A stretch of DNA of 64,000 nucleotides from Dictyostelium discoideum (taxonomy: Eukaryota). The stretch covers positions 4,672,001 to 4,736,000 of the forward strand of contig CM000153.2 of NCBI GenBank assembly GCA_000004695.1, given 5' to 3'. This document shows, one piece after another, positions 4,273 to 44,594 of this stretch. The notes below the pieces were generated by a model that was given only the letters and a program-made list of their open reading frames with translations, did no database searches and was not told the DNA's origin. Every line of letters starts with the position of its first letter. The first letter of the stretch is position 1. The translations under genes were made by a program, and so were the position numbers.

Positions 4273-4308
<36 letters not shown>

Positions 4309-5179: not shown

Positions 5180-5267
5180 TAAAAATTTAAAAATAAAGCG
5201 AAAGCAATCATGATGTTTTTTTTTTAAAAAAATAATAATACACAATATTTTATTTATTTATTTATTT

Positions 5268-9665: not shown

Positions 9666-10195
9666 ATATTAATTTAATATGAAAAAAACATTTTCATTTC
9701 AAAAAAAAAACTTTTTTTTCTGAATATATTATAATATGAATAAAATAAAATTTAATTTACCCCAAAAATATCTTACACAAAGGATTTAATTTTTATTTTA
9801 AAAAGATTTTTCGGCATTATATTTTAATCAAAGGGGCTGCCAGGAATGAAAATATCTTAAGCCTATAGAATTTTCTAAATTTTTTTTTTTTTTGAGACCA
9901 CCTTTTCCATATCACTCACCTTGGAATTTCTTTTTTTTTTTTTTTTTATTTTTTTTTAATATTGATTAATCATAGTTTATACTTAAAGGAAATACACAAT
10001 AACTAATAGTTTTATTTAGAAATTTTTTTACTTCATTTTATAATTTAGTTTTTCGATTTTGGTTTGAATTTTAAAATAGTGTTGTTGGTTTTGTTATTAT
10101 TATATTATATTATTTTTTTTTTTTTTTTATATTTTATTTATATGAATTGGTTGAATGAGATGAGATTTGGTCGCACAAAGTGTTTTCCGAGACGA

Positions 10196-10731
10196 TTTTT
10201 TTTTTTTTTTTTTGATATAAATAAACTATTGTAGTATACAATTAGTATGTTATTTTTATTTATTTATTTTAGGTTTTTTAGTTTTTGTGAATTTAAAATG
10301 GTATGTTATTTTAGATTAGGTAATTAATAATTAATTGGTGGTGTAATTGTTGGAATTGGTTCATAAGTGTTTATGCTCCATTCTTTTTTAAATTTTTTGA
10401 TTGTTTCGGACCATTGGGTTTCTTTTTGAGTTTTTGTGAGGTTGTTTTTAATTGAGTAATGGTTGAAGTTTGATAATGTTCTTGAATATTCCAATCTTAT
10501 TAGCTTGTGCCATTTTGATTTTAATATATCATAATCTAGTGTTGTGTTGTTTATTTGGTTGTTCCAATTATCAATTGATTGAGTTATATTGATGTCAAAT
10601 AATGATTTGCATAACCATATCCATATTTGGTGAATAACTAATGAGATTATGTTCCAATATGCATGTGTTCTGACTAGATCAAGATTTGTGTTTATATAAT
10701 TCCAGTTGAACCTGTATTTTTTATATTGTGC
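10196..10731 (-). mobile_element. 5'-truncated non-LTR retrotransposon fragment of TRE3 type (tRNA-gene-targeted, downstream-inserting), with oligo(A) tail and 14-bp target-site duplication.
   Basis: The direct repeats GTTTTCCGAGACGA at 10182-10195 and 10732-10745 bracket the element. Its 3' end is a T18 run on the plus strand (10196-10213), which is oligo(A) on the minus strand. It sits about 40 bp downstream of the tRNA-Ala 3' end, immediately after an ex-B-box-like GGTCGAGTGTTCGATTCTCG. ORF 10324..10764 is a C-terminal retroelement ORF fragment. Confidence 0.55.
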
Positions 10732-10764
10732 GTTTTCCGAGACGAGAATCGAACACTCGACCAA
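10324..10764 (-). CDS. C-terminal fragment of the retrotransposon ORF inside the TRE3-like element.
   Basis: 146-aa ORF with no ATG context, ending shortly before the element's oligo(A). It lies wholly within the TSD-bounded insertion. Confidence 0.4.
   Translation of the reverse strand: MVECSILVSENAQYKKYRFNWNYINTNLDLVRTHAYWNIISLVIHQIWIWLCKSLFDINITQSIDNWNNQINNTTLDYDILKSKWHKLIRLEYSRTLSNFNHYSIKNNLTKTQKETQWSETIKKFKKEWSINTYEPIPTITPPINY
10743..10762 (-). promoter_or_regulatory. External B-box-like pol III element (GGTCGAGTGTTCGATTCTCG) downstream of tRNA-Ala.
   Basis: GTTCGAnTC B-box consensus about 30 nt past the tRNA terminator T-run. Dictyostelium tRNA genes commonly carry such ex-B boxes, which are the landmark for TRE3 integration. 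Confidence 0.4.
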
Positions 10765-10788
10765 TTTCCCCTGTAAAAAAAAAAAAAT

Positions 10789-10884
10789 TGGAGAAGAAGG
10801 GTATCGATCCCTTTACCTTATGGAAATCTGATTATCGTTGCTGTTTATGCAAACCATACGCTCTACCATATGAGCTACATCCCC
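10789..10884 (-). tRNA. tRNA-Ala (anticodon UGC) with an apparent 23-nt intron 3' of the anticodon.
   Basis: Minus-strand sequence GGGGATGTAGCTCATATGGTAGAGCG-TATGG-TTTGCA-[TAAACAGCAACGATAATCAGATT]-T-CCATA-AGGTA-AAGGGATCGATACCCTT-CTTCTCCA. Features are the G3:U70 Ala identity pair, D-arm GCTC/GAGC, anticodon stem TATGG/CCATA, T-arm AAGGG/CCCTT with loop ATCGATA, and discriminator A, followed by a T13 pol-III terminator (10775-10788). Confidence 0.7.
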
Positions 10885-10930
10885 ATTGACGAAAAAATTT
10901 AATTAATAGCAGTTACCATATTAATAGTGT

Positions 10931-11768
10931 AATCAGAAACAACAACAACAACAAAACAACAACAAAACAAAATCAACTACAACTACAACTACACTGGCAA
11001 TGCAAGCAAGCATGGACCCAATTAAAAACTCCACAAAATAAACAAACACACTACGAACACCTCCCAAAATTAAAAAAAATATACGAGGATATGATGACAA
11101 CTCAATCTCCAGAACACAACAAATTCATACCAACTCCTGGCCAAAAAGAAATAATGACCAAAATTAATAGCAAACACCTTCCATTTAAAGAAATCAAAAA
11201 AATAATAAACATGAAAGGTAGAGATCTATTATGGAGATACACACTGAAAGCATTACCAAAAATATACAACATGCCATGCCAACAGTGTGGGGAAGATGAG
11301 ACTTCAGAACATATATTCTTCAACTGCAAAGCCCACATCAAAAACACACAAGAAATATTCAACTACACCCTAACTAAGTGTGGACACACCACTCACACCT
11401 GGAATGTGAAGATTTTAAACCATCTACAAATCGCACTAGTAGCCAATTTAATAGCTATTATATTCGAAAGAATCTGGCACAAAAGAAATAAACTCATTCA
11501 CGATGAAAAAGAAATAATAATTCACAGACAACAAGTCATACGTGAACTGATTAAAACACAAAGAGCTGCATGGGACAGGACACAAGCGGTTATAAACAAA
11601 ACATTAAGAATCAAATCAAAGCAACGGCCAGAAGAACAAAATAAATTAGACTCCTTAATTTCGGTAAAGCTATTCCAATTTAGCAGACAAGGGAACTCCC
11701 CTTTTTCCCCAAAAAAAATTTCCGAAACATTTCAAAAAAAAAAAAAATTCCCCCGGGCTTTTTTTTAA

Positions 11769-11844
<76 letters not shown>

Positions 11845-12138
11845 TGGGAACCCAAGTTAATCAGAAAATTTCCAGATTTTTAACTTTTTAAAGAAAAATA
11901 AAAAAAATAGAAAGAAAATAAAATGAAAATCACAAACAACACCACAAATATTAAGCAACACAAATGCCTACAAAAAATAAGCGAAATTGTGGATAAAACT
12001 CAATTAAAAAAAAAACAATTCAAATACGTCATAAACATCAATCACGAACCAGACGATAAAATAAAAAAAGATTTAGAAAAAAGTTTGGACAAAAAAGATG
12101 TTTTAATCAAAAGTAATAATACAATTCAAAATTCGAAA

Positions 12139-12184
<46 letters not shown>

Positions 12185-12285
12185 CCAACCCCTCTTTTAG
12201 AGACCCTGTAAAAAAAAAAAAAAAATAAAATAAAATGAGATCTAGCATCTCAAGGAGAAGCAAATAATAATTGCGTTATCCAATT

Positions 12286-12315
<30 letters not shown>
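10931..12315 (+). mobile_element. TRE5-like tRNA-gene-targeted non-LTR retrotransposon copy (short, 5'-truncated or internally deleted) with 16-bp target-site duplication. Its 5' end lies 46 bp upstream of tRNA-Ala.
   Basis: Identical ACCATATTAATAGTGT at 10915-10930 and 12316-12331 flanks the element. It is oriented head-to-head with the tRNA at the characteristic ~48 bp TRE5 distance. It contains the ORF2 C-terminus (11091..11768) with the CCHC-like CQQCGEDETSEHIFFNC. There are three oligo(A) runs (11768-11840, 12140-12178, 12286-12315), the last abutting the TSD. Confidence 0.65.
11091..11768 (+). CDS. Non-LTR retrotransposon ORF2 C-terminal domain fragment (Cys-rich CCHC motif) within the TRE5-like element.
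   Basis: 225-aa ORF ending in oligo(A). The C-x2-C-x8-H-x4-C motif is typical of the ORF2 C-terminal domain of LINE-like elements. Confidence 0.55.
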   Translation: MMTTQSPEHNKFIPTPGQKEIMTKINSKHLPFKEIKKIINMKGRDLLWRYTLKALPKIYNMPCQQCGEDETSEHIFFNCKAHIKNTQEIFNYTLTKCGHTTHTWNVKILNHLQIALVANLIAIIFERIWHKRNKLIHDEKEIIIHRQQVIRELIKTQRAAWDRTQAVINKTLRIKSKQRPEEQNKLDSLISVKLFQFSRQGNSPFSPKKISETFQKKKKFPRAFF

Positions 12316-12318
<3 letters not shown>

Positions 12319-12749
12319 ATATTAATAGTGTTACAATTCAAAAAAAAAAAAAAAACATATTAAGATGGTTATTAAGGAAGAATTATATTAGTAATTCTAG
12401 AGAAAAAGTAACGAATAATTTAGTGATTTTGCGAGGTGAGATTTGATTAAGAAAATTAAACTATCTTGTTCAATCCTTATAAATAAAATTTAATAGCTCT
12501 ATTTATCGCCTTTTTTATCCTAACTTTGTGTAAAAGAATATCCACAATTTCATCAAAAACCTAGATCCTTAAAAATAAATTTAATTTAAATTATTATATA
12601 ATTGTTTAAAATCAAATAAAGAAAAATCTTGATAAGGTCATAAAAGGCAAAAGAATGTTTAATTAATATAAAAAAGTCAATAATATATTAATATCTAAAA
12701 ATAAAAAAAAATGGGTAACACTTTTTTATAATTATTTAATTAATTTATT

Positions 12750-13012
12750 TTATTTTATTTTTGAAATCAAATCATTTTTGAAATAGAATGAATAATCAAT
12801 ATCACTATCTTTTATAAAATCAAGCAATTCCAAGTCATTAGCTAACAATGCTCTTTTGTTAATTTCTTCAAAATCCCAAACGAAAAAGTCTTTGTGATTC
12901 TTGAAAATATAGATAAACAAATCTTTATTTTGAACAAATATTGAAGCAGATAAATAATCATCTTTAATGAATGAATTATCTCTATTTAAAATTTTAATAT
13001 CAACATTATATC

Positions 13013-13043
<31 letters not shown>

Positions 13044-14825
13044 ACTATTACTATTATCATCTTTTTCAGGTTGATTAAAATTACTATAAATAATATTAAC
13101 TATTTTTAATATTTTATTTATATTGGGTAATAGGATTTGAAAATCATTATGAACTAAAATATGATGAAGTATAATTGTTGAATGAATTGGATAGTTAATA
13201 TTATTTTCAACCAATAATTTCATATAACATAATTGATCTTCAATTCTAACTTTTTTTGTATTGAATAAACTTTTGGTAGTTTGAGGTGCATAACTATCTC
13301 TTAATGAAAGTGCTTTTGAAATTTCTTTTGTTTTATAACATTTATTAACTATTTCAACTATATTATAATCACTATAATAATTTGCAATTCCTAATAAAAT
13401 ATTACAAGTTGTATTTAAAGTTGACAATGGTGATAAAATTTTCGACAAATATGATGATAATGAACTATATTCACCACATTCTCTAGTGAAATCAGTGATA
13501 ACTCTAATTAAAGTATTTGTATTTGTAATATTTTTAGTTGTTACTAAAAAATCAAATATAAAAATTCTTTTAATTTCAATTTCTTGGGAAACTTTTTTTT
13601 CTTTTTTAAATTTTAATTTATTTTTTAAAATTGATAAAGTACCTTGTTGTTCATTATTATTACTATTATCATTATTAGGTGAAGAATTAATATTTAAAGT
13701 TGTTGTTGTTGTTGTTGTTGTTGTAGTTGTAGTTGTTGTTATATCATTATTTTCTAATCTTTCAATTTTTGATAATAATATATTATAATAATTACTATTA
13801 GATTCAGTTGAAATAAAACCTAAACTTGCAACATAAATTGAAGATTTAATAAATGGAAGATATTCTTTTTTAAAATTAACTTTTTCTGAAGAAAATGTAT
13901 CATTTAATTTATTATCTAATAAATAAGTAAAAGATCTATCAGAATATAATAATGGTGAACCCATTTGATAAAGACGTTTAAATACTTTTAAATCTAATAA
14001 AAGTAAATTTGAAAAATAATTATCAAATGAACCTGTATGTTTTTTTGGTGGATCGTAATTTAATTCATCTAATAAATATTTAACTACAAATGATCTATTG
14101 ATTGACATTAATGAATAATGTAATGCTTTTTGATGATCTTGTAAGCTTAAACCCATATGTTTATGAACATATTTTATAATTTCTAAATTTCCATATTTTA
14201 ATGCAACATCTAATAAATCTTCATCTTTTGAATAGGTTATTGAGTTTCTATCAGTTTCATGAAATAAACAATTACTACCATTACTAAATTTATTAGGATC
14301 TTCATTTACCATTTTAAAAAATTCAAAACAATTCATATGAATTGCAAATTTAATCAATGAAATATTTCTATAATGTGTAAATATTGGATGATGTAATTCA
14401 CTTTGAAATAAATTTTCTGAATTTGTTTTAAAAAATTCTTTTAAAACTTTTAAACCATTTTTACCAATTAAATTATTTTTATAATTTTTTTGATTTTGAT
14501 CATTTTTATCTTCATTACCATTATCATCATTATTATTATTATTATTATTACAATAATCGTTATTATCTAATTCTTTAAGATATTCAAATAAAAACATTAA
14601 ACCATTATATGATAAATCACTCTTTTTAAAATGATAATTTGATTTAAGTTTATCTTTTAATAATGAATAATTATTATTTTTTGATATCCATTCAAGTGTT
14701 ATTTTATCATATCTTGAAACTGAAATTTTAAATTTTGAATTAATTTCATAAACATAATTAAAAATAATATTTGATATATATTTATTTCTAAATACTAATT
14801 TATATAATCTATATTGATTTTCCAT
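12750..14825 (-). CDS. Hypothetical protein, 691 aa, with poly-Asn and poly-Thr tracts and possibly degenerate ankyrin-like helices in the middle.
   Basis: Uninterrupted ATG-initiated ORF (ATG at 14823-14825). No confident domain. Motif GNLEIIKYVHKHMGLSLQDHQKALHYSL is weakly ankyrin-like. Confidence 0.55.
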
Positions 14826-25071: not shown

Positions 25072-26683
25072 TTAATTTTCTCCAAGTGTATCATTAATAG
25101 GTATATCATTTGTAGTATCAATTGATGGTGGTGGTGGTGATAATTTTGACATTCTAATTTTGGATTGTCTTTTTTCACTACCACTACCACTACTACCACT
25201 AGTATTAGTTGTACTAGTTGTTTCTGAACCTAATTTAATGAAATCATTTAAACCACATTTTTTTAAAATCCATTTCAATTTTTCACTTTCTTTCCAAATT
25301 TGAATAACGATTGGATCTAAACCATAACCAATGAAAATACAAAAACCTAAAATACTTACTACTACAACATTTAATGCTTTCAATTCGTAACCTGGTGCAT
25401 GTAATTCACATTGTGATGGATCACCTTTACTAATACATTCTGCCCAAACTGCAATTGCATCAAAATAAGTATCCATTTTATCTTCCATATAAAATTTTAA
25501 TGATGATGCAAACGTTAAATTAAATAATAAAATTAAACTTGTTATAATTATTTTAATCTATACAAATTTAAAATTATTGTTAAGAAAATAATAAAAATAA
25601 TAATAATAATTAAAATTATAATTAAAATTTACATTAAAAAATAAAATTCTTCTATTTGGTGATTTCATATACATTTTTGAAACATTAATAACAGATAAAA
25701 TTGAAAATAAACAAAGTAAACCCATTGCACACCATGATGGTATATAAAATGATATATATTGCCAAGCTGATCCATCATCTGAATTTATCCAACAACTTGT
25801 TGCAACTGTTGCACTATATTTTCCTCCGAATGCTGGTAATGCTGTTAAAACAAATATTAATGACCAAATACCAATTCTATATAAACCAAATTTTCTAATT
25901 TTACCTAAATTTTTTACAAAAAAAAATATTAAATTAATTAATTTTATAATATTTTATATTATATTAATTTTTTTTAATTTTTTTTATTAATTATTTTAAA
26001 ATATATACATACTTAATCTTGAAGTTATATAAAAATCATATGCAATCATTGGAGCCCAAAATATTGAAGTAATCGCACCAAATTGGAAAATTAAACCAGT
26101 TAATAAACATAAATAGTCTGATTGCGATTTGAATCTACCTGGATCTGAACTACAATTAAAATTATCTTGTCTTGATTGAATGAATAACGATAATGCTGTA
26201 ATACAACCACCACACGCAAATGATAGAATAGATTCCATACGATGAGTTATTTTATTTGGTAAAACACCAAATGTTAAAATCATGAAAAAACAAGTTATAA
26301 ATGATATACTTGTTAATGTATAATTTGTTTTATCCAATATTTTAGTTTTACCTGGATAAATTTCAAATGGACAATCTAAAATACAACTATCAGTAATATA
26401 ATAATAAGTTGTTTTACCTGGTATAACATGATCTTTGGAATTTAATAATGGTGCAGGACAATTTATAACTGATGACGAATTATCATAAATTATATTATCA
26501 TTACACTCAACATTAAAATTGAAATCAAAATTACCACTCTCTTTAAATTCAAAATCAGTCGAATTTATTGGAAACATTGGTACACCATTTGAAAATTTTG
26601 AGCTACATGATAAATCTTTTAAAAAATTATCAATAAATATTTTACATGGTGTTTCTGCAATTACTATTATTTTTTATTATTAT

Positions 26684-26741
<58 letters not shown>

Positions 26742-27136
26742 TACTAATTATAATAATAATAGTTAATTTAATTTTACTTACAACATATTGAATTACATGG
26801 TAGTGATGGTAAATTAAATATAATATTTGTATTATTTGATAATGTTTCGTTATGTGTTTCACATTTTGGATATGATTTTAAACAAATTAAATTAATTGCA
26901 TTTGGTTTACATTCTGGTGTTGTAAATTCTAACATTCGAATAATATCTGAAACATTTTTATTTAATTGAGTGATTGAATCACCTGGTTGTAAATAAAAGT
27001 CTGTATAATTTAATTTTGAAAAACATGGTGAATTTGAATCAATTAATTCACAACTACCACCAAGTTTTAAATCTTGTGAATTTACAAATAAAAATAAAAT
27101 ATTTATAATACATATTAAAAAATTTAATTTTTTCAT
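25072..27136 (-). CDS. Frizzled/smoothened-like 7TM receptor (fsl family) with N-terminal Fz-type cysteine-rich domain, copy 1. Four exons: 27136..26782, 26663..26013, 25904..25633 and 25557..25072 (588 aa).
   Basis: Signal peptide [20 protein letters not shown] plus Cys-rich CRD (…[14 protein letters not shown]…[20 protein letters not shown]…LPCNSIC). The 7TM core follows across three further exons, each joined by GTAAGT/GTATGT/GTAAAT…TAG introns that keep the frame. The total is divisible by 3. Confidence 0.8.
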
Positions 27137-27814
27137 TTCTTCTTTTTTTAAAAGGAGATATATAATAAAAATAAAGTAAAAAAAGTAAAAAGTAAAAAGT
27201 AAAAAGAAAAAAAAAGTGTTTATGACCACAAATATATATAACTAAAAAAAATTTTTTGGCCGCTTGATAAATTAAGACTTTGTAATTTGATTATATTTTT
27301 TTTATTTTTTATTTTTTATTTTTTATTTTTATTTTTTTTTATTCAAAAAATCTGAATTTTTATGAAAAGAATGAAAATGGGGCTTCTATCGAGATTTTTT
27401 TTTTATTTTTTTTAATGGTATTTTATAAAAAAAAAAAAAATCAAATCGTATTTTATAAAAGTCTTTCGAATTTTATTTTTATTTTACATTTTTTTTTTTT
27501 ATCAAAAAATTAAATAATTACTTTGAAAATTAAAAAAAGAAATCTAAAATTTTTTTTTTTTTAACAATAAAACAAAAATTATGTAAAAAATTATTTCATT
27601 TTATTCTATGTGTTTTGCTTTACTAAAAAAAAAAAAAAAGAATAAAAAAAAAAAAAAAAAGTTTAAAAAAAAACAATAAACTTTACAACTAGGTTATTCA
27701 ATTTACTGTATATATTTAATAATATTAATTAATTTAAATGAAATATTATTTATTATTACATAAAAACTAAGATTAAATAGTTTTTTTTTTTTTTTTTAAA
27801 GTTTTTAATTTACA

Positions 27815-29830
27815 TTATGGTTGTTGATTTATTTCAGTAGACTTTAAATTTGACATTTTTACAGTTGTTTGTTTTCTTTCATTACCAGATGATGTTGAAG
27901 CAGTTTCGTTGTTATTATTATTGCTATTATTAATAGAATTATTTAATTTTATTATTTTATCCAATCTACATTTCTTTAAAACCCACTGGAATTTTTTACT
28001 TTCCATCCAAATATGAATAACAATTGGATCTAAACCATAACCAATGAAAACTGTAAAACCTAAAATACCAATAACAACTATATTCAATGCTTTTAAATCA
28101 TAACCTGGTGCATGTAATTCACATTGTGATGGATCACCTTTACCAATACATTCTACCCAAACTGCAATCGCATCAAAATAAGTATCCATTCTTTCTTCCA
28201 TGTAAAATTTTAATGATGATGCAAATGTTAAAACAAATAAAAATAATAAAAGTGTAATTAAAATTTTAATCTGTACAAAAATTAAAAATAAATATTAAAT
28301 ATTAATATGTTTGTCTGAAAAAAAAAAAAAAAAAAAAAAAAAAAATTAAATGAAATGATTTAATACTTTACATTAAAAAATAAAATTCTATTATTTGGTG
28401 TTTGAATATACATTTTTGAAACATTAATAACAGATAAAATTGAAAATAAACAAATTAAACCCATTGCACACCATGATGGTATATAAAATGAAACGTATTG
28501 CCAAGCTGATCCATCATCTGAATTTATCCAACAATTTGTTGCAACTGTTGCACTATATTTACCTCCGAATGCTGGTAATGCTGTTAGAACAAAAATGAAT
28601 GACCATAATACAATTCTATATAAACCAAATTTTCTAATTTTACCTGTTTTTTTTTAAAAAAAAAAAATTAAACATTAATTAATTTAGTTTTTTTTAAAAA
28701 AAAAATAATAAAAATAAAATATATATATAATTACCTAATGTTGAAGTTATATAAAAATCATATGCAATCATTGGTGACCAAAATATTGAAGTAATTGCAC
28801 CAAATTGGAAAATTAAACCAGTTAATAAACATAAATAGTCTGATTGCGATTTGAATCTACCTGGATCTGAACTACAATTAAAATTATCTTGTCTTGATTG
28901 AATGAATAACGATAATGCTGTAATACAACCACCACACGCAAATGATAGAATAGATTCCATACGATGAGTTATTTTATTTGGTAAAACACCAAATGTTAAA
29001 ATCATGAAAATACAAGTTATAAATGATATACTTGTTAATGTATAATTTGTTCTATCCAATATTTTAGTTTTACCTGGATAAATTTCAAATGGACAATCTA
29101 AAATACAACTATCAGTAATATAATAATAAGTTGTTTTACCTGGTATAACATGATCTTTGGAATTTAATAATGGTGCAGGACAATTTATAACTGATGACGA
29201 ATTATCATAAATTATATTATCATTACACTCAACATTAAAATTAAAATTACCACTCTCTTTAAATTCATAATCTGTGGAATTTATTGGAAACATTGGTGCT
29301 CCATTTGAAAAATTTGAATTACACGATAAATCTTTTATAAAATTATCAATAAATATTTTACATGGTGTTTCTGCTTTTACTATAATTATTTTTAAAAAAA
29401 AAAAAAAAAAAAAAAAATTAACATTTAAACAAAACATTAATTATAAAAAAATTATTTAATTTTACTTACAACATATTGAATTACATGGTAATGATGGTAA
29501 ATTAAATATAATATTTGTATTATTTGATAATGTCTCATTATAAGTTTCACATTTTGGATATGATTTTAAACACATTATATTAATTGCATTTGGTTTACAT
29601 TCTGGTGTTGTAAATTCTAACATTCGAATAATATCTGAAACATTTTTATTTAATTGAGTGATTGAATCACCTGGTTGTAAATAAAAGTTTGTATAATTTA
29701 ATTTTGAAAAACATGGTGAATTTGAATCAATTAATTCACAACTACCACCAAGTTTTAAATCTTGTGAATTTACAAATAAAATTATAAATAAATAATAAAT
29801 TATTAAAATATTTATTAAAAATGAATTTTT

Positions 29831-29833
<3 letters not shown>
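27815..29833 (-). CDS. Frizzled/smoothened-like 7TM receptor (fsl family), tandem paralogue copy 2. Four exons: 29833..29470, 29379..28735, 28643..28372 and 28270..27815 (579 aa).
   Basis: Same exon structure and intron positions as copy 1. CRD and TM exons are near-identical at DNA level; the cytoplasmic tail (exon 4) diverges. Confidence 0.8.
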
Positions 29834-32067: not shown

Positions 32068-32110
<43 letters not shown>

Positions 32111-32288
32111 TTTATTATTTGATGTTGATAAAGTTGAATTTAAGGAACAAGTTGTATCTATACCCAATTGACCACGACTATTTGAACCCCATGAATAAAT
32201 ATTTCCATTATTATCACATGCTAAACTATGTGCCCATCCTCCTGAACAATTTTTTATTTTAATTGAGTTTATTTTAAAGTAATTTAAT

Positions 32289-32354
<66 letters not shown>

Positions 32355-32357
32355 CAT
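31129..32357 (-). CDS. RCC1-repeat (regulator of chromosome condensation-like β-propeller) protein. The reading frame is disrupted near 31590-31610 by a frameshift or an atypical short intron.
   Basis: Start MNNNNN(Q/N-rich)…ILNYFKINSIKIKNCSGGWAHSLACDNNGNIYSWGSNSRGQLGI. RCC1 signatures YGWGCNKFGQLSN, FGQNKFGQLGNGN, YICGRGEYGILGDN, YSFGWNEHYQLGL. ORFs 31562..32167 and 31129..31611 overlap by about 50 nt in different frames. Confidence 0.55.
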
Positions 32358-32483
32358 TTGAAAATAAATAAATTAATTAAATAAATAAATAAATAAATAT
32401 ATTATTTATTATTTTATTATTATTATTATTATTTTTTTTTTTACTATTACACAGAGTCTTGTATACAAATTATTTAAAATTTA

Positions 32484-32749
32484 TTATAAAGATTCATTTG
32501 GCTTTTCTTCAAATGCCGAGTTTTCGTCATTTGAAGTAATACCTTTTTTAGGTTGTAGTTTCTCTTGTTTCTTTTTTATTGATTGTAATAAGGCCTCTTC
32601 ACCTTGAATAATTGCATAATTAATTTCACAAATCTTATCATGATTATAATTCTTCCAACGTGTATGGAAAAATTTCTGATGGAATCGGTAAACATTCATA
32701 TGATCTTTGAAATTAATAAATGCATAACCACGACTTACTTTTGTCTATT

Positions 32750-32786
<37 letters not shown>

Positions 32787-33221
32787 ATTAATAAAATAGG
32801 ATTATAATTAAAAAATGTGTTAAGAAGAAAAACTTACATGAGGATCTAATGGCATATTTAAAAAATCATAAGTATCTTTAAACTCTTCATCAATAAGGGC
32901 AGTAAGATTTTGTTGAGTTAATCTATTTGGAATATTTCTAATCATTAAAGATGTTCTTGTATCAACTCCACTAATTATATTCTCTGGAATTAAAATACAA
33001 GTTGGATCTACAGGTTCTTTTGGTTCCTTTGGTTCTTTTAATTCTTTCTTTCCTTTGGAATTGGTTGAATTTCTTAATGTTCCATTGTTTTGATTCTTTT
33101 GTTGTGCCTTTTGCTGTTGAATCTCTGATTCCAATTCTTTTCTTCTTCTTTCAAGTTGTTCAAGTTCTTGTTCATTTTCAAGTATACTAACTTCATAAGC
33201 TGTTTGATTATATTGATGTTT

Positions 33222-33265
<44 letters not shown>

Positions 33266-33266
33266 G

Positions 33267-33308
<42 letters not shown>

Positions 33309-33390
33309 TATACTATTATTCATATTATTATTATTATTATTAATATTTGAACTATTATTGTTATTATTATTATTATTATTATTATTAGTA

Positions 33391-33467
<77 letters not shown>

Positions 33468-33747
33468 GTTATCATTATTATTATTATCTAATATAGAACT
33501 ATATTGTGATTCTGCAAATAAATTAAGAGATGAATTTGTTGGTGAATTATTGTTACTATAATTTAATAGATTTGGAGTATTACAACCACTGTTATTATTA
33601 CTATTATTATTACTATTATTATTACTATTATTATTACTATTATTCTTATTGCTATAAACATATGAAGAGTAAGAAAAACTATTTCTAAAATTATTATTAT
33701 TATTATCATTATTATTATTATTATTTATATTATCATTGTTATTATTA

Positions 33748-33829
<82 letters not shown>

Positions 33830-36242
33830 TTATATTATTTAATTGATTATAACTACGATTTAAAAATAAATTTGTAGTTTTAATTTTATTAACAGCATCA
33901 TTTGTTGAAGAAAAGAAAGAATCAGGACCAATTAAATCAATGAAACCAGCACGAATAAAATTTTTCTTATGAGAATCACGTAATTTAACAAAACAAACTT
34001 GAATCATTCTTTTTTTATATTGAGATACCATTTCGTATAGGATTTGAATTGAAGAAGCATCGATTACAGGTATATTACGCATATCGAAAACTATACCATA
34101 TAAAGAGGATCTTTGATTAATTGGTAAATTTAACATTTCTGAAGGATGAGCTAATGCACTACCAATATTTTCAATTCTAAATAGGATTTCTTTAACTTGA
34201 CCGATATTTGCAAAATAAAGGGATTCTTCAAATCTAATGACCAAAACACCATCAACTTGTTGAGCCTCTGGGAAAATAATGATATCTTTAAATTTCGAAG
34301 TTGGAGCATCACCAGGTAATTTACCCAACACAGTGAAATGTGGTGCAGAAGATTGTCTAATAACCAATAGAATCGAAGCACCAATACTAACGACTAAACC
34401 AACCTCGACACTGAAAATAAAGGTACAAACAAAGGTGGCAGAGAATAATAGTAAATCTTTCCAAGCCCTTAGCTTCCAAAGGAAAATAATATCATGAACT
34501 TCAAATAAACCCAATGCGGCCACGAAAATGATAGAGCTCATAATTACTCTTGGTAAATATTGGAAAATTGGCATTAAAAACAATAGGGTGAATAATACTA
34601 CAATAAAAGTGACAGCACCAGCCAATTGAGTTTTTGCACCAGCTTTATCATTTACAGCGGATCTTGTCATTGATGCATAGATTGGATATGCTAAAAATAT
34701 TGAACCAAATATATTACTTGCACCAATTGCCACCAATTCTCTATTTGTTGAAACTTGATAATTATGTTTGGTTGCGAAATTCTTACTAACCGCCATTGAC
34801 TCAACGAAACCCACAATACTAATGAACAAAGCTGGACCAATCAATTGATTGACCATATCCCATCTATTTAATTTTGGTAATGTTGGTATTGGGAAACTTG
34901 TAGAATAATAACCCAACACAGCAATGCCTTTCTCTTTTAAATGAAAGCCAGCTGAAACTGAAATCCCCACCACTACCACCACCAAAATTGAAGGTATAAA
35001 AAAGATTATATGATGTATTATTTTAGTTCTAACCTCTGGACAACATCTCTTTTTAATTTGACCCATAATTAATAATGCTATAATTGAAACGACACTAATG
35101 ATCAATGATAGCTCATTGACTAAATCGAATTTCTTAAATATTAAAGGTATTTTACGCCAACCACTATCCGCAACTGATATGCCTAACAATGTATCCATTT
35201 GATCGAATAGAATTGTAAAAGCCACTGCATTAATGAAACCTCTAATCAAGGGACGTGATAAAACCTCTGAAAGGAACCCAAATCTAAGTAAACCTAAAAT
35301 CAATGAAATCACACCAACCAAAAATGCCAATATATTTGCAGATGCTATCATTTCATCAGTTGTAAGTGGTACATCAGCAGACTCACTTATCTCTTTCAAT
35401 GTTGTACCAACGATTAAACTAACCAATGCTTCAGGACCAACTGATAATTGTCTTGATGTGCCCAACACTGCATACATCAATAATGGCATTAAACCAGTGT
35501 ATAAACCATAGATTGGTGGTAATCCAACCAATAATGCATATGCTAAACTTTGTGGTACCAACATAATTGATGTTGTAACTCCTGCCGTTAAATCATTAAT
35601 TGCATTGGCTCTATAATCATATTTAGGTAACCATCCTAAAATTGGTATATAATATTTAACTTTATTCTTTAATCTTTTAATCTTTTCTTCTTTATTTTCA
35701 ACTTTTTTACCATAATTTTCTTCAAAATTTAAATCTAAATCTAAATTATTATTATTATTATTATTATTACTATTATTATTATTATTATTATTACTATTAC
35801 TATTAGCACTAATTAAAGAAGGTGAAACTATTGGTGATAATGATGGTGAAGATGAACTATCACTTTCAATATTACTATTATTTTGTAAATTCTTTTTATT
35901 TAATTTTGTTAAGAAACTACTAAATGTAAGTGGTGTTTCTTCAATTAATGGTCCTGATTTCAATGTACTATTGATTGCATCCATTGATTGACTTAATGGC
36001 ATACCATTATTATCAAGTAATATTGCATTGTTATTATTATTATTATTATTTTGTCTATTTCTTAAATGACCAGAAGAACTAATTGATAATGGTACACCAT
36101 TATACCTTCCATCTATTTCTATATTCTCTTCTCTTTGTTGTTCTTGTTGTTCTTGTGGTTGATAAGGTTGTTGTTGATTTGAAAGTAATGGTGATGATTC
36201 ATTCTTATCATTAGATGAACTCCAAAATTTCCAATTTACCAT
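32484..36242 (-). CDS. SLC26/SulP-family anion (sulfate) transporter with a STAS domain, fused through a ~330-aa poly-Asn/Gln region to a C-terminal Mei2-type RNA-recognition motif (RRM_2). Two exons: 36242..32838 and 32744..32484.
   Basis: SulP core …YYIPILGWLPKYDYRANAINDLTAGVTTSIMLVPQSLAYALLVGLPPIYGLY… and STAS …VLVIRFEESLYFANI…. After the low-complexity spacer comes …TSLMIRNIPNRLTQQNLTALIDEEFKDTYDFLNMPLDPH. Donor GTAAGT, 93-nt intron, acceptor atag. The final exon TKVSRGYAFINFKDHMNVYRFHQKFFHTRWKNYNHDKICEINYAIIQGEEALLQS… matches the PF04059-like RRM_2 of Mei2 proteins. The single ORF stays open throughout, and the spacer lacks the poly(A)/poly(T) tracts found in every intergenic region here. 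Confidence 0.65.
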
Positions 36243-36290
36243 TTATTTATATATTAATTATTATAATTGAAAAAAATATTCCTATTATAT

Positions 36291-36369
<79 letters not shown>

Positions 36370-36743: not shown

Positions 36744-39700
36744 TTATTTAAATAAATGAGATTTCTTGGAAAGTTTTACAATACCAGTGATAACATCATC
36801 TTTAATACCAAAAGATTTCAAAACTGATCCACCAGTTGTAGAATTACATTTTGAAATGATAACCTCGAATGAAACTGTAGTAGAAGGTTTGAGGAGTTTA
36901 ACGAATATCTTGATAAGTTCTAAAATAAAGAATCTAAAGTTATCAGATAATTGACCTCCAAGAGTTGAATCGAATTTAATTAAAGAACTTCTTGAGACAC
37001 CCAATGCTAAAGAAACCTTTTTAACAGTTTCATAACTTGTTGGTGAATTTACAATCATCAACAAATCTGAATATAAAGTAACTATTTCTTTTTCAAATAA
37101 TTGTTGTTGTTTTTGTTTCATTATATCATTTGATTTATCTTCTTTTTTAGATTTTTTCTTTTTTTCTTTTTCCTCTTTTTCTGTTTCCAATGCCCAACTT
37201 TTTCCAATGATTGATGATGATGAGTTAAAGATATCTTCATTTTTGGATTTTGATAATTTTGATCTTGATCCATCTTTTGACAATGATAAAGAGGATGACG
37301 ATGAAGACGATGATGATAAATACTTTGGTGGTGGTGATACGTAATCTTCATTATCGTCAAATAAACCAAAACCACAATATTCTTCTTCATCAGACTCTTC
37401 TTGTTCTTTTTCTTTTCTTTCTTGTTGCTTTTGAGATTGTAGCTGTGGTTGTGGTTGTGACTTTGGTGGTGGTGGACAATAATCATCGTATTCGCCAAAT
37501 AATCCAAAACCACAATCCCCTTCTCCATCAGACTCTTCTTGTTCTTTTTGTGGTCCTGATTTTGGTTGTTGTGGTTGTATTTGTTTTGATTCATATAAGG
37601 ATTGAGACAATACCCTTTGTAATTGATAATCTTCTTCATCACCAAAAAGACCAAATCCCATGTCTTCATCTTCATCATATGATTCCTTTTTTTTAGGTAA
37701 CGATGTTGGCTTTGAAACTGTTGTTGTTGCTGCTGCTTTTGTTGTTGTTGTTGATGATGTTGGATAGTCACCAAAAAGATCAAAACCCATATCTTCATCA
37801 CCCCACTCTTCTTCTTCGTCTTTTGGTTGAGATTTGGCTGCTAAATAGGAAGCAGGAGTAGAAGAAGCTGTAACAAGAGAAGTAATAGCATTGGGTACAC
37901 CTCCAAAAGAGTATGAACTTCCACTACCGCCGCCACCACTTCCTCCTTTCTTTACTGGTTCGTCTGACCAAGCATCATCGTCGTCGTCGTCTTCGTCATT
38001 TTCAATACAATCAATAGCTACTCTTCTACGACTTAGAGAATTTATTAATTGTGCAGAAAGATTATCAATAGTTTTGGCTTCTTCTTTTAATTTCTCTGGA
38101 ACTGCTTTTAATGAATATCCTCGTTTTATTGAATTCAAAAGAGAACCTTCATCACTTTTCAAAGAGTTTGCCTCTATCGAATTATTTTTTGAAGTTGATG
38201 ATGATGGTGGTGGTGGTGGTGGTGGACCAGATGATGATGGTTGTGGTGGTAAAGTAGTTCGTTTAAACCTTGGCATTCCATCTGATTTCTTTGAAATATT
38301 TCTTTCTTCTTGTAGATTTTCTTTTTCAGGACTATAACCAATATGAGCCGAAGATCTTCTCATCATTCCTCCAAATACTTGTGGAGCTGGTGGTGCTGGA
38401 CTAAAGACATTAGTGGATACACTTGGTCTTGGAGCATTTGGCAATGGTGGTGGTGTTGGTGTTGGTGTTGGTGTTGGAGTTGATGAGAAAGAAACTGTAC
38501 TCATTCTGGAATATCCAGCAACCATTGGTTTACTTGGTAAATTTATTTCAGAGAGGGTACTTTCTTCTTTGGCTTTAGATTTTGAAAATGATGGTGATGA
38601 TGGGGAATATGATGTTAAAACTGGTAATTTGGATGGTTTTGTTGGTGCATAAGATGGTGATACTGGAGAATAGGATGGTATTGTTGGTGCATATAGTAGT
38701 GATGTTGGAGTATATGATGGTGATACTGGAGAATATGATTGCGAAGTGGAAGCATATAGTGGAGAAGTTGAATAAGATGGTGATGTTGGGGAATAAGATG
38801 GTGATGTTGGGGAATAGGATGGTGATGTTGGGGAATAGGATGGTGATGTTGGGGAATAGGATGGTGATGTTGGGATATAGAATGGTGATGTTGGGGAATA
38901 AGGTTGAGAAGCTTGGAAAAATAATGATGGTGGTGGTGCACCACGTCCAAGTGATGTTGATGGTGGTGGTGGTGGTTGTGGTGGTGGTGGAGCACCACGT
39001 CCAAAAGCGGTACCAATATTTCCTCCCCTTCCACCTCTTGATGATCCTATACTTCCACCTCTTGATGATCCTCCTCTACCTCTACTACTATTGTTTGAAC
39101 GAATATTTCCTTCAGGAGATGGAGATCTAGATCTAGTTACACATCTATATTTATCAATTGATATTCCTCTTAAACTTACTTCACCTCTACTACTATTGTT
39201 TGAACGAATATTTCCTTCAGGAGATGGAGATCTAGATCTAGTTACACATCTATATTTATCAAATGATATTCCTCTTAAACTTACTTCATTACTAAAACTA
39301 TCAGATTCACTATCACTTCCACTTTCACTTTGATTTTCACTAACTCCTCCTTCATAATCTATATCAGTATTATTATTATTTGATACAATTTGATTAACAA
39401 CAATTGGTTTATAAGTTGTTGTTGCTTTTTTAATACCAAGTTTTTTAGGAGTTATTGACCATTGTTTAGAAGAAATAGTTGATTCAATTTGTGGTTCATC
39501 TTTTGGTTCATTATCAACATTATTTTCAGGTTGATGTTGATGACGTTGATCAAGGTTAAATTCATTAATTTCTTGTTCATCTTCAATAAATTGTAAACAT
39601 TCAGTTGTAGAATCACGAATTAATTGAAGTAAAAGTGTTGTATCTTTATAAGAATCTTCAGATAAGGTATCCAATTCAGAGATTGCTTTGTCAAATGTAT

Positions 39701-42432
39701 TCTTTGAAATTTGAATTGATTTTTCAAAATCACCATTCTCTTTATAATAGTTTGCAGATAATAATGATAATTGTAATAAAATCGGATTGGTTGGTGATAA
39801 TGAATTTTCTGAACGTTGTAAAGCAGACTTTAAAGTTGATTCAAACTTTTCACACCATTGTTTCTTTGAATATTTATTATCATCACAATTTAATAAACTT
39901 TTATAAACTGTACATTGATTATTCATTAAACTAATAATTGCCTCTTCATTATTTGAATGATTTGTTGATGATTCTAATAATCTTAATAAACCTTTACCTT
40001 GATAAATTATATCCTCTTTTAATTTCTTTTTCTCTCTTAATAATTTACTTGGTGTTGTTGGTGTAGTAGTAGTTGTTGTTGTTGAATCATCATTAATTGA
40101 TAATTTATCAACTCTTTTTGAAATTAAATTATTAATTGTATCTGAAAGTAAATTTAATTCTTTCATTGAAAATTCACCAAATGTATCTGAAATTTGATGA
40201 AATACATTAATTGTATCAGAGAACTTGCTATTTGAATGATATTGTTCAATTAATTTGGATAATTGATCACGTTTATTCAATAGAATTGGATCATTTGGAT
40301 CTTGATCAATACCTTGAGATTTATCTTCCCATGCAATGTATGGTAGAGAATCAACAATAGTTTGAGAGATAATCGATTGAATTGGTGGTAATTTTGAGAA
40401 TGTTTCATGTTTTTCCCTCTTTTCAACTGCAACAAAACTTGTGAATGGTGTTACAATCGAGTATTTAATGGATAGGTCGATGACATCATTCTTTTTCTTT
40501 AATTTAATTAAATCATGTTCATGTTTATTTTGACTATAGGTACCATCTTGATATTCTCTAATCATTGAACGAGCAGCTAAACGATGAATTAAATTACCCT
40601 TTATGAAACCAATCTCTGGTGTATGAACAACGTTGGTGATTAAACCACCACCAGGTGCTTGGCAAATCAATGTTGCACGAGTACAAATACCAGAGAAAGC
40701 ATACATAACTTGACGTTCTTTCTTAAATATTGAAGTTATAGTAGCAGGTGATTGAACTATGGAATTGGTATCACTTGAATCGAATTTCACTGAAATATTC
40801 GACATTGCGGGTTGAGTTAACCGTTGAAGTTGATCAATGATTTTCTTTGGATTTGGACGTTTATTTGTTTGAATAAACTCTGGATAACCACCACCTAAAC
40901 GGCAAATACTCTTTACGAAATGTCTACTACAATGCTCACCAATACCAAATGCAAACATTCTACAATAGGGTGATGCTTTTTTAACCAACATTTGAACCAA
41001 TTCTTCATTGGCTACATTACCATCTGTGAATAGTAAAATATTATGTGGATTGGTTGGTTTAGCTTTCTCTGCCAACAAATAAAGTGATTGTAATGGTTGA
41101 TGTAATAATGTACCACCATAGGATGTTTTTAAATGATTGATATGGCTCCAAGCAATTTGTAAATTTGATTCAGTCGGTGGTACACCAATACCGAAAAGCC
41201 AGTCAAAGGTATCACCAAAACAAACCACATCGAATAACACCTTTTGCATACCACGTAAATTTGAAATAGTGATACGAACTGCACGTAATAAATCCTCAAA
41301 TGCATCACCAGCCATCGAAGATGATAAATCAATTAATAAAGTAACCATAGTATGGCTATCCTTCATAGTATTATCAATATCCAATTTTGGATAAAATGCC
41401 AACATACTTGCATGATGACCTTTCTCATCAACCTCAACCCACATTCTTGGTGAATAAGGCTCCTCCAAACCAATCAATAATTGGAAATTCTTATCTAAAT
41501 ATTGATTATCTTGATTATTTAATTCAATGGTTGCTTTTGTATGAGTACGTTTTATACGAACGTCATGAGTTGGTGAAATTAATTTTACAATATTATAAGG
41601 CATTTCAATACCGACCGAAATGGATAAATCAGATTGTTTTTGTGCCAATTCTGTCACTTGAACAGTTGATGTTACCGATTGAGTATTACTACTTGAGGAT
41701 TGCAATCTTTGCTTTGGTGTGATTGAACGTGGTAATACAAAACTAATATCTAAACCATCGATTGATAGCTCAGTAACATAAACTATCTTAATTAAAACAT
41801 CACAATTTGGTGGTAAATTACCAACTGAAACTGTGAAAACATCAGGTTTATCCTCATCCATTAAATATGCACCATGACCAGCTGCAACTGCTTCACGATA
41901 CTCTCTTTGTGCTTTCTCCTTCTCTTTACATTCACCAATTATATGTTTACCATTTACATAAGCTTCGAAACCACAAACTGCTCCCATTTCATCCAATGGA
42001 AAAACATACTTTGCTTCAATCATATTCTTTGAATTATTTTGATAATGTTGATAAATTGTAACTTCACCAATTAAATCTAAAATTTTACCTTTAACATGAA
42101 CAGATTTTAATGGTATAGCATTATCACCACCACCATTCTTTGAAATTAAACCAATTTCTTGATTATCATCATCATCATTACTATCATCAATTAATGATTT
42201 TTGAGGTAGTGAATTTGGAACTTTCTCAGATTCAATAGTTGGTTTAACTGATTCTTTTGAAATTTCAAGTAATTTATCATTATTTGATGATAATGATGAT
42301 TTTAATATTGGTGGTATTGTTAATGAATTTAAATCATCAAATTCAATTAGGTATTGAATTTTTTGTTGTTTTGAATCATAAATTACAATTTCATCATCAA
42401 TAAAATCAGATTGTTTAACTGTATTATTTGAC

Positions 42433-42466
<34 letters not shown>

Positions 42467-44594
42467 CAACACCTTGAACACTATCAAAACCTTTTGGTGG
42501 TTTTGATAATTGAGTTTGATGAGTTGTATATTTTTTAATTTGACCTAATGCAACTGAACAAATAAACATATACTTTGAAAGTGTTTTTGTTGATGCTTTA
42601 CAATATTGAATTGAAGTGGATGGTTTAACACCAAAATAAATACCACTACCCAAATAACCAATATCTCTTCTACCAGCACCAATTGATGTTGATACATTTG
42701 GTGTTAATAAACCTCTACTTAGTATACCCAATATATTCGATGGATTACTACCATGATAAAGTGTTTTCAAATTACCAACTTCAAAATTATAATTATCTTC
42801 TTCTTTTCTTATAATTTTAAAAATATTTTTAATTTTTATTAAATTATTATTATTATTATTATTATCTATACAATTTTCATTATTATTATTATTATCATTA
42901 CCATTACTTTTTTTAATTGATTGTTGTGGTTGTGTTAAACCTTCAATTTTTGTACCACCTTTAATTTGATCAGTTATACGTTTAAAATCTTTTGAAGATT
43001 TATCTAATTGATTAATTTGACAACGTAATGCACGATATTTTGCCATTTCACCACTACTTGCAGAAGTTAATGTTTTTGAAACACCACTTAATGATTCACC
43101 AACTGATAAAATATCTTTCATTAATTGTACAGATTCTTGAATATCATTTAATAGTTCATATGAATTATTAAATTTACCACCTGGTGGTTTCAATTGTGGT
43201 AATGATCTAAAGATTTCATCGATTAAATCGGTTGATTCTTTACTATCAATTTTACCACCATTACCTCTTAACACTGTTGATAATTGAAATAATGATAATT
43301 CAGCTTTATCAACTTGCATTAATGTAATGTCACCCATTGATGTTTTAATTGAACCTTCAGGTGAAAGGTGAAGTTTACTACCATTACCAAACTTATTACC
43401 CAATGTTGATATAGCTTCATCATATAATATTTTAATTAATTCATGAATTGGTTTTGGAATTTCATTATTAATGTTATTACTATCATCAATATTATTGGTG
43501 GTGGTTATTGTTGTATCATCAAATAATTTATTATAACATAATTCTTGTAATTTATTAGAACCAATTAATGTTGAACCTAATTGAAATTTTGAATATTTTT
43601 TATTTATTAAATGATCTTTAAATATCTCATTATATTGGTCCAATGAATTCTCCAAATTTGTAAATGGTATCCATTCTTTAACTGAATCATTTATTTTATT
43701 TGCATCTAAACTACCATAATTTAAAAATACTCTATAATATGATTGTGTTTGGTCACCACTACCACCACTATTATCACTATTACCAGTTTTAATTAATTCT
43801 AAAATTTTACCTGCAACATGTAATTCCAAACAAATAAAACTTTCAGCTTTTGGTGATATTAAAACATTATGTTTAACAACATGATATTTAGATTCTGTTG
43901 GAAATTTATCGTTTTCAACTTTATTATTATATTTAATTCTTTCATATTGCTGTTGTTGCTGCTCACCATTAGTTGATGATGATGATGATGATGATGGATC
44001 TTCTAATAAATTTGAAAAATCCAATGATTTATAATGATATTCTTTAATATTATATAATGAAACTAATGAATATTCATTTGGTGATAATAAATTACCATTT
44101 GAAATTGAATCTTCTAAATATCTTTTTGACACAATTGGAATATTCAATTTAATTGCCTTTTTAATATTGGATGATAAAGTTTCTAAATTTATATTCTTTT
44201 TTTCTTCTTCATCTTGATAACTATTATTATTATTATTCTTTTCATCAACTTTTATTAAATCATTAAAATCACCACTAAAAATATAATAGTTAATCTAAAA
44301 ATAATTTTTATATAAAAAAAAAATAAAAATAAAAAAATAAAAATAAAATTAAATGTTTCACAAATAATTATTATATGTGTGTTAATAGTTGAATGATTTA
44401 AATTTTTTTTTTTTTTAATTTTTTTAAATAAATAATAAAAATAACAAACTTACTTTTTGATTTAAAATCATTGAGACATTACCACCATGTGATTCTACAT
44501 ATGATTGTAAAACCTTTTTTGATTTTAAGCCACTATTTCCACAATCCAAATAAAATGTAAGATTATTTAACACAGAGTTTTTATTTACAACCAT
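36744..44594 (-). CDS. PARP4/vault-PARP-like poly(ADP-ribose) polymerase: BRCT, PARP catalytic, VIT and vWA domains, followed by a very long low-complexity C-terminal region (about 2560 aa). Two exons: 44594..44454 and 44294..36744.
   Basis: Exon 1 [47 protein letters not shown] (BRCT-like) ends at donor GTAAGT. A 159-nt intron precedes exon 2, which starts [19 protein letters not shown]… in phase 0. PARP catalytic region …[18 protein letters not shown]…GSGIYFG…YLIEF. VIT domain …[42 protein letters not shown]. vWA domain …[11 protein letters not shown]…. The C-terminal tail carries YSPTSPS heptads, a tandem duplication and four DDDMGFGLFD-like motifs. Confidence 0.85.

Follow-up and report, generated by a model that had tools for sequence, protein, structure and literature searches.

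A probable gene fusion between an SLC26/SulP anion transporter and a Mei2-type RNA recognition motif in a dictyostelid genome

Relation to described transporters and RNA-binding proteins

SLC26/SulP anion carriers are presumably dimeric membrane proteins in which everything from the STAS domain onward is cytosolic. Fusions of such carriers to additional domains exist: bacterial SulP–carbonic-anhydrase proteins are one example, and an FHA–SulP fusion is present among the SulP relatives collected here. Whereas these known fusions (FHA, carbonic anhydrase) add signalling or enzymatic domains, the gene described here appears to add an RNA-binding domain; to our knowledge, no RNA-binding accessory domain has been described on a SulP carrier. 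The gene lies at 32484..36242 on the minus strand of a 64-kb stretch of Dictyostelium discoideum DNA (contig CM000153.2), referred to in its whole length as the window, and we consider it probable that two genes have truly fused here, in one lineage. In base composition the window is extremely AT-rich, and its Asn/Gln-repeat-rich open reading frames (ORFs) are of the kind that dictyostelid social amoebae typically have; the closest protein relatives of its transporter found by BLASTP are all dictyostelid. The window protein has the full-length core and STAS domain of structurally characterized family members, namely AtSULTR4;1 (7LHV), prestin (7V73) and SLC26A9 (6RTC), and it shares a post-STAS SSY motif with the dictyostelid SulP orthologues (P0003, P0004, P0006 and P0007). 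However, whereas these four orthologues end 36-79 amino acids (aa) past STAS and ~50 aa past the SSY motif, the window protein runs ~360 residues further, into the RNA-binding domain.

That domain is an RNA recognition motif (RRM) of the RRM_2 type and corresponds to RRM3 of Mei2. Mei2 of S. pombe, the plant AML/TEL proteins and dictyostelid DFA_10084 all contain the same RRM_2 domain, with the same fold and terminal helices as in the window protein. The RNP1 and RNP2 motifs and the F644/I681 pocket of Mei2 and Mei2-like proteins are kept in the window RRM, and its intron interrupts the domain where the introns of the dictyostelid genes do. Canonical Mei2-like proteins, however, are soluble and carry two N-terminal RRM_1 domains followed by RRM3, whereas the window protein has a lone RRM3 on a polytopic membrane protein. 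Proteins reduced to RRM3 are known from plants, where the MCT ('Mei2 C-terminal RRM only') proteins are stand-alone and soluble. Similarly, KAF2076568.1 of Polysphondylium violaceum (P0223) has, like the window protein, a single RRM_2 domain after low-complexity sequence, but it is stand-alone and soluble.

Gene structure and reading frame

The fusion gene (32484..36242, minus strand) is predicted to consist of two exons and to encode a product of 1221 aa and 137.6 kDa. Exon 1 (32838..36242, minus strand; aa 1-1135) opens with the N-terminus MVNWKFW, which the window protein has in common with the orthologue from Tieghemostelium lacteum. It is followed by a 93-nucleotide (nt) phase-0 intron (32745..32837, minus strand) of the form GTAAGT...TAG with 9.7% G+C content and a run of 28 T residues, the borders of which read CCT CAT / GTAAGT...(T)28(A)9TAG / ACA AAA GTA AGT CGT GGT TAT GCA. 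Its removal joins ...MPLDPH/TKVSRGYAFINF... and leads into exon 2 (32484..32744, minus strand), which is 261 nt long and ends with the TAA stop codon at 32486-32484. An AATAAA motif at 32480..32485 (minus strand) overlaps this stop codon and, apart from one copy within exon 2 at 32580, is the first to be encountered after 33890; no AATAAA was found by motif scan between 33889 and 32581. The spliced frame has no in-frame stops over 1221 codons. Furthermore, the spliced product aligns with RRM3 of S. pombe Mei2 (7EIU, 7EIO, 7DUS and 6YYL; E-value 2e-25) without gaps across the exon junction, so that the intron call is exact and independently confirmed.

An earlier note on this DNA had described one ORF in which an SLC26 core and STAS domain continue without a stop into an Asn/Gln spacer, and had proposed that a bona fide RRM_2 domain beyond it is completed by a spliced 3' exon. 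Both descriptions hold. The unspliced ORF at 32820-36242 (minus strand) spans 1140 aa with no in-frame stop and contains the expected Pfam matches, while its match to the RRM_2 profile (PF04059) extends from positions 1-38 of 97 before splicing to positions 1-96 of 97 after it. Searching the C-terminus with the PF04059 hidden Markov model, the check that the note had suggested, gave 89.3 bits against a cut-off of 25 (E-value 2e-25). The spacer is likewise real, although its length, put at 330 aa in the note, comes to 312 aa.

Directly upstream of the fusion-gene ATG, ~20 tandem copies of ATAA/TAAA (sense strand) occupy positions 36250-36345. This array comes after a T-run-rich region typical of promoters.

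The transporter half

The membrane core, Sulfate_transp (PF00916), maps to 34446..35597 on the minus strand (aa 216-599) and matches positions 3-376 of the 380 in the profile (332.7 bits against a cut-off of 23.2, E-value 3e-99). The STAS domain (PF01740) follows at 33894..34271 on the minus strand (aa 658-783) and covers profile positions 2-106 of 106 (53.2 bits against a cut-off of 22.6, E-value 3e-14). Solved SLC26 structures are matched by this half of the protein with E-values from 1e-103 to 1e-44; the match to prestin (7V73) has an E-value of 2e-103 and that to AtSULTR4;1 (7LHV), spanning core and STAS, 3e-97. Identity to the dictyostelid SulP orthologues is 59-71% in BLASTP, reaching 71% over 612 aa for T. 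lacteum, and tblastn gives 58-73% over the aligned segments in T. lacteum, Acytostelium subglobosum, Cavenderia fasciculata and Heterostelium album. Judged from its sequence, the transporter half is an ordinary conserved SLC26/SulP protein in every respect examined. No hydrophobic segments were found after the membrane core of the 1221-aa protein, and the RRM is therefore expected to reside on the cytosolic side.

Conservation of the transporter extends beyond the STAS domain. The motif SFSYSSYV (33657..33680, minus strand; aa 855-862), identified by orthologue comparison, is present as an exact 8-mer in T. lacteum and through its SSY core in the other three orthologues. In the window protein it stands in frame behind a ~50-aa poly-Asn insertion. 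Since this motif is both conserved and in frame, the first part of the spacer, amounting to ~80 of its 312 aa, is a genuine transporter tail.

Public names of the orthologues require a comment. The SulP orthologues of T. lacteum, C. fasciculata and H. album (P0003, P0006 and P0007) are named 'RNA recognition motif-containing protein RRM' but contain Sulfate_transp and STAS only, and the name is thus misleading. Apparently, these orthologues inherited it from the annotation of the fused gene in the reference species. If so, the reference annotation of the window gene would already be the fused model, and that model is probably public.

The RNA-binding half

After splicing, the RRM_2 domain comprises aa 1096-1191. 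Its first part (32838..32957, minus strand; aa 1096-1135) lies in exon 1 and includes RNP2 (LMIRNIPN), and its second part (32577..32744, minus strand; aa 1136-1191) lies in exon 2 and includes RNP1 (RGYAFINF). The remaining C-terminal tail (32484..32576, minus strand), which extends to the stop codon, has low model confidence and is probably disordered. An AlphaFold2 model of aa 1075-1221 has a predicted local distance difference test (pLDDT) score of 83, with core blocks averaging >90, and displays a beta-alpha-beta-beta-alpha-beta core flanked by helices at model residues 12-16 and 110-124. The five best matches of the model in the PDB are all Mei2 RRM3 structures (including 7DUS, 6YYM, 6YYL and 7EIU), with template modelling (TM) scores of 0.71-0.80 and root-mean-square deviations (rmsd) of 1.1-1.8 A. 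The best of them is 7DUS (TM 0.73/0.80, rmsd 1.2 A).

In the structure of Mei2 RRM3 bound to meiRNA, F644 and I681 form a U4 pocket that is needed for binding, and their double mutation abolishes RNA binding; further RNA-contact residues include Y629, R631, S677, N680 and K690 (PMC9486875). The window protein keeps the stacking phenylalanine F644 (as F1144), Y678 (as Y1178) and I681 (as I1181). Several features of the domain nevertheless speak against RNA binding. The contacts Y629N, R631P, F634P, S677N, N680I and K690S are replaced, F634 being an RNA contact in the 6YYM complex that is a proline here. The domain is 36-46% identical to other dictyostelid RRM3 domains, departs from many nearly invariant family columns and scores 89 bits against the RRM_2 profile, compared with 102-162 bits in the relatives scanned. 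In addition, the protein lacks the two RRMs that accompany RRM3 in canonical Mei2-like proteins. Given this divergence, a purely protein-binding or vestigial RRM is a serious alternative. In that case the fusion would be made but its RRM3 would no longer bind RNA; attached to the STAS tail, it would mediate protein interactions or regulation, or simply persist as a nearly neutral passenger. We regard this outcome as rather improbable, because RNP1, RNP2 and the F644/I681 pocket are intact, the fold is predicted with high confidence, and the domain, its intron and its frame have all been preserved in a genome so rich in A+T that sequence free of constraint soon gains stops. Moreover, R631P and F634P are common to other dictyostelid Mei2-like proteins. 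The replaced contacts are those that set the specificity of S. pombe Mei2, not membership in the family. As modelled, the window RRM3 is divergent yet structurally intact.

No RRM_1 domain was detected by Pfam in the 1221-aa protein. A tblastn search of the 64-kb window with the RRM1/2 region of C. fasciculata as query did not reveal RRM1 or RRM2 either, although the same query detects the A. subglobosum locus at 57% identity. Because RRM1 and RRM2 are absent from the window, the downstream module can be regarded as an RRM3-only derivative. The protein is thus predicted to bear an RRM3 of the Mei2 type without belonging to the canonical Mei2-like proteins.

Ancestry of the RRM

A word-indexed search with the C-terminus returned two weak matches only, and HMMER and profile searches were needed to place the domain. 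Its best single-domain HMMER matches (44-49% identity) are dictyostelid Mei2-like proteins, namely P0130 of Synstelium polycarpum, DFA_10084 of C. fasciculata (P0131), the EukProt entry P0133 and P0139 of A. subglobosum. In a neighbor-joining tree the window domain falls inside the dictyostelid Mei2-like RRM3 clade, nearest to P0223 of P. violaceum, and the clade is marked by the signatures RTSLMI.N.PNR.TQ and LP.DP..KV. The gene structure agrees with this placement: in A. subglobosum a phase-0 intron interrupts the gene at the identical position (PMDPV/QKGNLGYAFINF compared with PLDPH/TKVSRGYAFINF in the window), and alignments to the C. fasciculata and P. violaceum genes break at the identical point. 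At the P. violaceum locus, too, no RRM1 or RRM2 was found.

The A. subglobosum protein P0139 was considered as a stand-alone 258-aa RRM-only orthologue and rejected, as its ORF is open to the contig end and contains RRM1 and RRM2. The public model SAMD00019534_126170 (258 aa, annotated as 'partial' and with RRM_2 as its sole domain) corresponds to the 3' end of this longer ORF at positions 1-2326 of the DF837626.1 locus, the RRM1 and RRM2 of which are 57% identical to those of C. fasciculata DFA_10084.

A separate peculiarity concerns two of the closest relatives. In the gene models of P0130 (Synstelium) and P0133, an AAA_11/AAA_12 superfamily-1 helicase is merged with the Mei2-like protein, and in C. 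fasciculata the helicase and Mei2-like genes are adjacent and separate, at 3638-6620 and 10001-13534 of the GL883026.1 segment analysed. This suggests that the helicase/Mei2-like pairing reflects conserved synteny, together with either model merging or another fusion.

The spacer and the fusion junction

The low-complexity spacer (32958..33893, minus strand; aa 784-1095) consists of 55% Asn+Gln and is free of stops in the coding frame, with 13 and 144 stops in the other two sense frames. Within it, beyond the transporter tail, lies the fusion junction (33318..33500, minus strand; aa 915-975), a 183-nt imperfect (AAT)n repeat with 6% G+C content and no codon-position periodicity, in which the other two frames hold 2 and 47 stops. 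Under the fusion model, it is within this stretch that the original stop codon and the intergenic DNA must have disappeared. All interruptions of the AAT repeat are in-frame substitutions (GAT, AAC, ACT, AGT TCA, ATT and ATG), and the frame is maintained through four separate repeat tracts and the unique sequence on either side. At the 3' edge of the junction is an internal ATG (33321..33323, minus strand; M974, MNNSINN...), the candidate start of an RRM-only product of 248 aa and 29.3 kDa. Clear codon periodicity resumes at the charged, heptad-like segment AYEVSILENEQELEQLERRRKELESEIQQQKAQQK (33096..33200, minus strand; aa 1015-1049), and the codon-position G+C values of 0.48/0.22/0.09 for aa 975-1095 indicate that this part is coding. 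Composition suggests that the ~35-aa AYEVSILENEQELEQLERRRKELESEIQQQKAQQK segment probably forms a helix or coiled coil.

One gene or two

A single fused polypeptide, made from a single transcript, would be the most likely product of the locus, and we consider that outcome fairly probable. It is favoured because translation of the conserved transporter has to end at a stop codon, and none occurs in frame until past the RRM. As the earlier note had argued, division of the locus into two genes would leave the transporter without an in-frame stop: the first is at 32484 in the spliced frame, beyond the RRM, or, if the intron is retained, at 32820, inside the RRM. A separate RRM gene starting from MNNSINN (M974) is accordingly disfavoured on the reading frame as it stands. 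Furthermore, the RRM piece resembles a 3' fragment without its ancestral 5' end, which fits expression via the upstream gene.

Several observations weigh against this interpretation. The ~180-nt (AAT)n junction lacks coding periodicity, so that the frame across it is backed only by the absence of stops, and an in-frame ATG (33323-33321) stands where the repeat junction ends. The stand-alone RRM3-only protein of P. violaceum, with its low-complexity, Asn-rich N-terminus, indicates that a separate short product is viable. Neighbouring genes are closely spaced, with at most ~230 nt between the stop at 32484 and the downstream RCC1 coding sequence, so that short intergenic spacers are possible. 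Finally, the +1 frame discrepancy of the RCC1 gene at (AAC)22, detailed below, makes repeat indels or errors a real concern.

Most of these observations would be accommodated if the one ORF housed two expression units. A promoter in or near the (AAT)n tract would drive the 248-aa RRM3-only protein from M974, and this product would replace or accompany the fusion protein. The mRNAs of the transporter would then be terminated within the tail, either by cryptic polyadenylation or by way of a non-consensus intron, and several non-consensus GTAATA or GTATAA donors are indeed present there. We consider this arrangement unlikely. An mRNA for the transporter alone would lack a stop codon unless spliced, and a cryptic-intron search of the spacer found no GTAAGT or GTATGT donor, only non-consensus ones; splicing at the first candidate donor would, moreover, remove the conserved SFSYSSYV. 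Nor, by these criteria, which cover consensus features only, does the spacer contain an AATAAA or T/A homopolymer runs like those, 8-14 nt long, that characterize the real region upstream of the fusion gene, where T14, T11 and T9 runs occur (the intron holds T28). An extra short isoform would, in any case, leave the fusion protein in place.

The second alternative is that the continuous frame reflects a lesion peculiar to the strain, or an artefact. If the (AAT)n tract had been collapsed or mis-called, a stop codon might have vanished together with a short intergenic region, or a frameshift might have been introduced, and the locus would truly consist of two tandem genes. In a 183-nt imperfect AAT repeat with 2 and 47 stops in the other two frames, a one-base error would change everything, and the RCC1 discrepancy may be of this kind. 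However, the junction repeat is interrupted exclusively by in-frame substitutions, the frame is held over four repeat tracts together with flanking unique sequence, and there is no direct sign of any error. The orthologue names, in addition, suggest that curators accepted the fused model. We therefore judge an artefact very unlikely, and a single fused polypeptide remains the preferred product.

The RCC1 gene itself (32100-32360, minus strand) shows the following arrangement. An ATG at 32357 and the adjoining (AAC)22 (32354-32290) read Met-Asn22, followed by a stop. The frame that encodes RCC1 (...NCSGGWAHSLACDNNGN...) begins at this same point but is shifted by +1, so that the repeat is read as poly-Thr, and no GT-AG intron separates the Met-Asn22 frame from the RCC1 frame. 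The discrepancy may stem from a frameshift, indel or sequence error at the triplet repeat, or else from a 5' end that is incompletely defined.

Distribution of the fusion

The earlier note had called the architecture unusual, and the searches bear this out. PF04059 was not found in any of the 120 best SulP relatives. Conversely, an exhaustive HMMER search yielded 7085 RRM_2 proteins, and none of the best 150, which were checked for other domains, has a SulP domain. A metagenome scan returned 80 RRM_2 loci, none of them >48% identical to the window RRM and none with a nearby SulP gene. Literature searches found no paper on a SulP–RRM_2 fusion.

The note had also suggested a check of orthologues in other Amoebozoa for the fusion: tblastn detected no RRM_2 within 10 kb downstream of SulP in T. 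lacteum, A. subglobosum, C. fasciculata or H. album. The SulP and RRM3 genes of A. subglobosum are on different scaffolds. In C. fasciculata both are on GL883026.1 in the same orientation, with SulP at 322-345 kb and the Mei2-like gene at 679-702 kb, ~350 kb apart, and this loose linkage could be a precursor to the juxtaposition in the window. The RRM3-only gene of P. violaceum stands alone, with no SulP domain within 10 kb. Since the juxtaposition is absent in four other dictyostelid genera, it is best viewed as derived and lineage-specific, and the fusion appears to be young or lineage-specific. Flanking genes common to the window and the orthologous SulP or RRM loci were not found by tblastx, and thus no synteny argument is possible. 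An RCC1 gene is located downstream of the H. album SulP gene, but it has no detectable similarity to the RCC1 gene of the window.

Possible origin, role and significance

The most economical history starts from a dictyostelid Mei2-like gene of which an RRM3-only derivative would have come to adjoin the 3' end of the SulP gene, the donated piece being the Mei2-like 3' end with the RRM3 domain, the phase-0 intron and the C-terminal tail. The transporter stop codon, which the tail lengths of the orthologues would place around aa 900-925, and a short intergenic interval might then have been lost, and an in-frame (AAT)n/(CAA)n coding repeat would now span the interval. The resulting product would have, in order, an SLC26 core, a STAS domain, ~310 disordered Asn/Gln-rich residues, a short helix of charged character and an RRM3 of the Mei2 type. 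If so, the locus offers a clean, datable case of triplet-repeat expansion erasing a gene boundary in an AT-rich genome and creating a new architecture, and many of the odd multidomain proteins of the group may owe their origin to the same repeat mechanism.

In such a protein the transporter would function as a normal, presumably dimeric, anion carrier, with a long flexible leash holding the RNA-binding module at the membrane. Having an F644/I681-type uridine pocket, the module could capture or sequester U-containing RNAs or ribonucleoproteins there; alternatively, membrane anchoring might restrain a Mei2-like activity. We infer that the likeliest role is that of a uridine-recognising module held at the membrane, localising or sequestering RNAs or restraining Mei2-like activity, with both RNA binding and a link between transport and RNA being conjectural. 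Provided that the fused protein is produced and does bind RNA, it would stand as a rare case in nature of a polytopic solute carrier with a sequence-specific RNA-binding domain, and would provide a simple, genetically tractable system in which to relate membrane tethering to RNA fate and transporter state to RNA regulation. If, on the other hand, the two halves are expressed separately, the finding shrinks to a gene-model question.

A far more speculative possibility, and one to which we attach little weight, is that the protein acts as a membrane 'transceptor'. The SLC26 anion (sulfate) carrier would sense nutrients via its STAS domain, and the RRM3, tethered by a prion-like Asn/Gln leash, would capture, release or condense specific RNAs at the membrane. 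Were this true, anion or sulfur availability would be tied to a post-transcriptional switch from growth to starvation-induced development. Mei2 is a nutrient-gated switch into meiosis in fission yeast, and such a transceptor would echo that nutrient-gated role.

Neighbouring genes in the window

The upstream neighbour of the fusion gene (36744-44147, minus strand) is a single ORF of 2467 aa, which also has an unusual architecture. It combines a PARP catalytic domain (aa 435-603) with VIT (680-790) and vWA (935-1091) domains, as in vault PARP/PARP4, and continues into a 14-3-3-like domain (aa 1304-1514; positions 6-219 of 223 in the profile, E-value 9e-20). Close to the C-terminus of the ORF product are several acidic 'EDMGFGLFG' tails like the C-termini of ribosomal P-stalk proteins (PF00428, E-value 5e-12). 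On the other side of the fusion gene, at 25996-29833 (minus strand), are two near-identical tandem gene copies, each composed of a Cys-rich signal-peptide exon and a membrane exon. By eye the membrane exon is Frizzled/Smoothened-like, although Pfam gave no match for the one ORF scanned. The pair looks like a recent tandem duplication.

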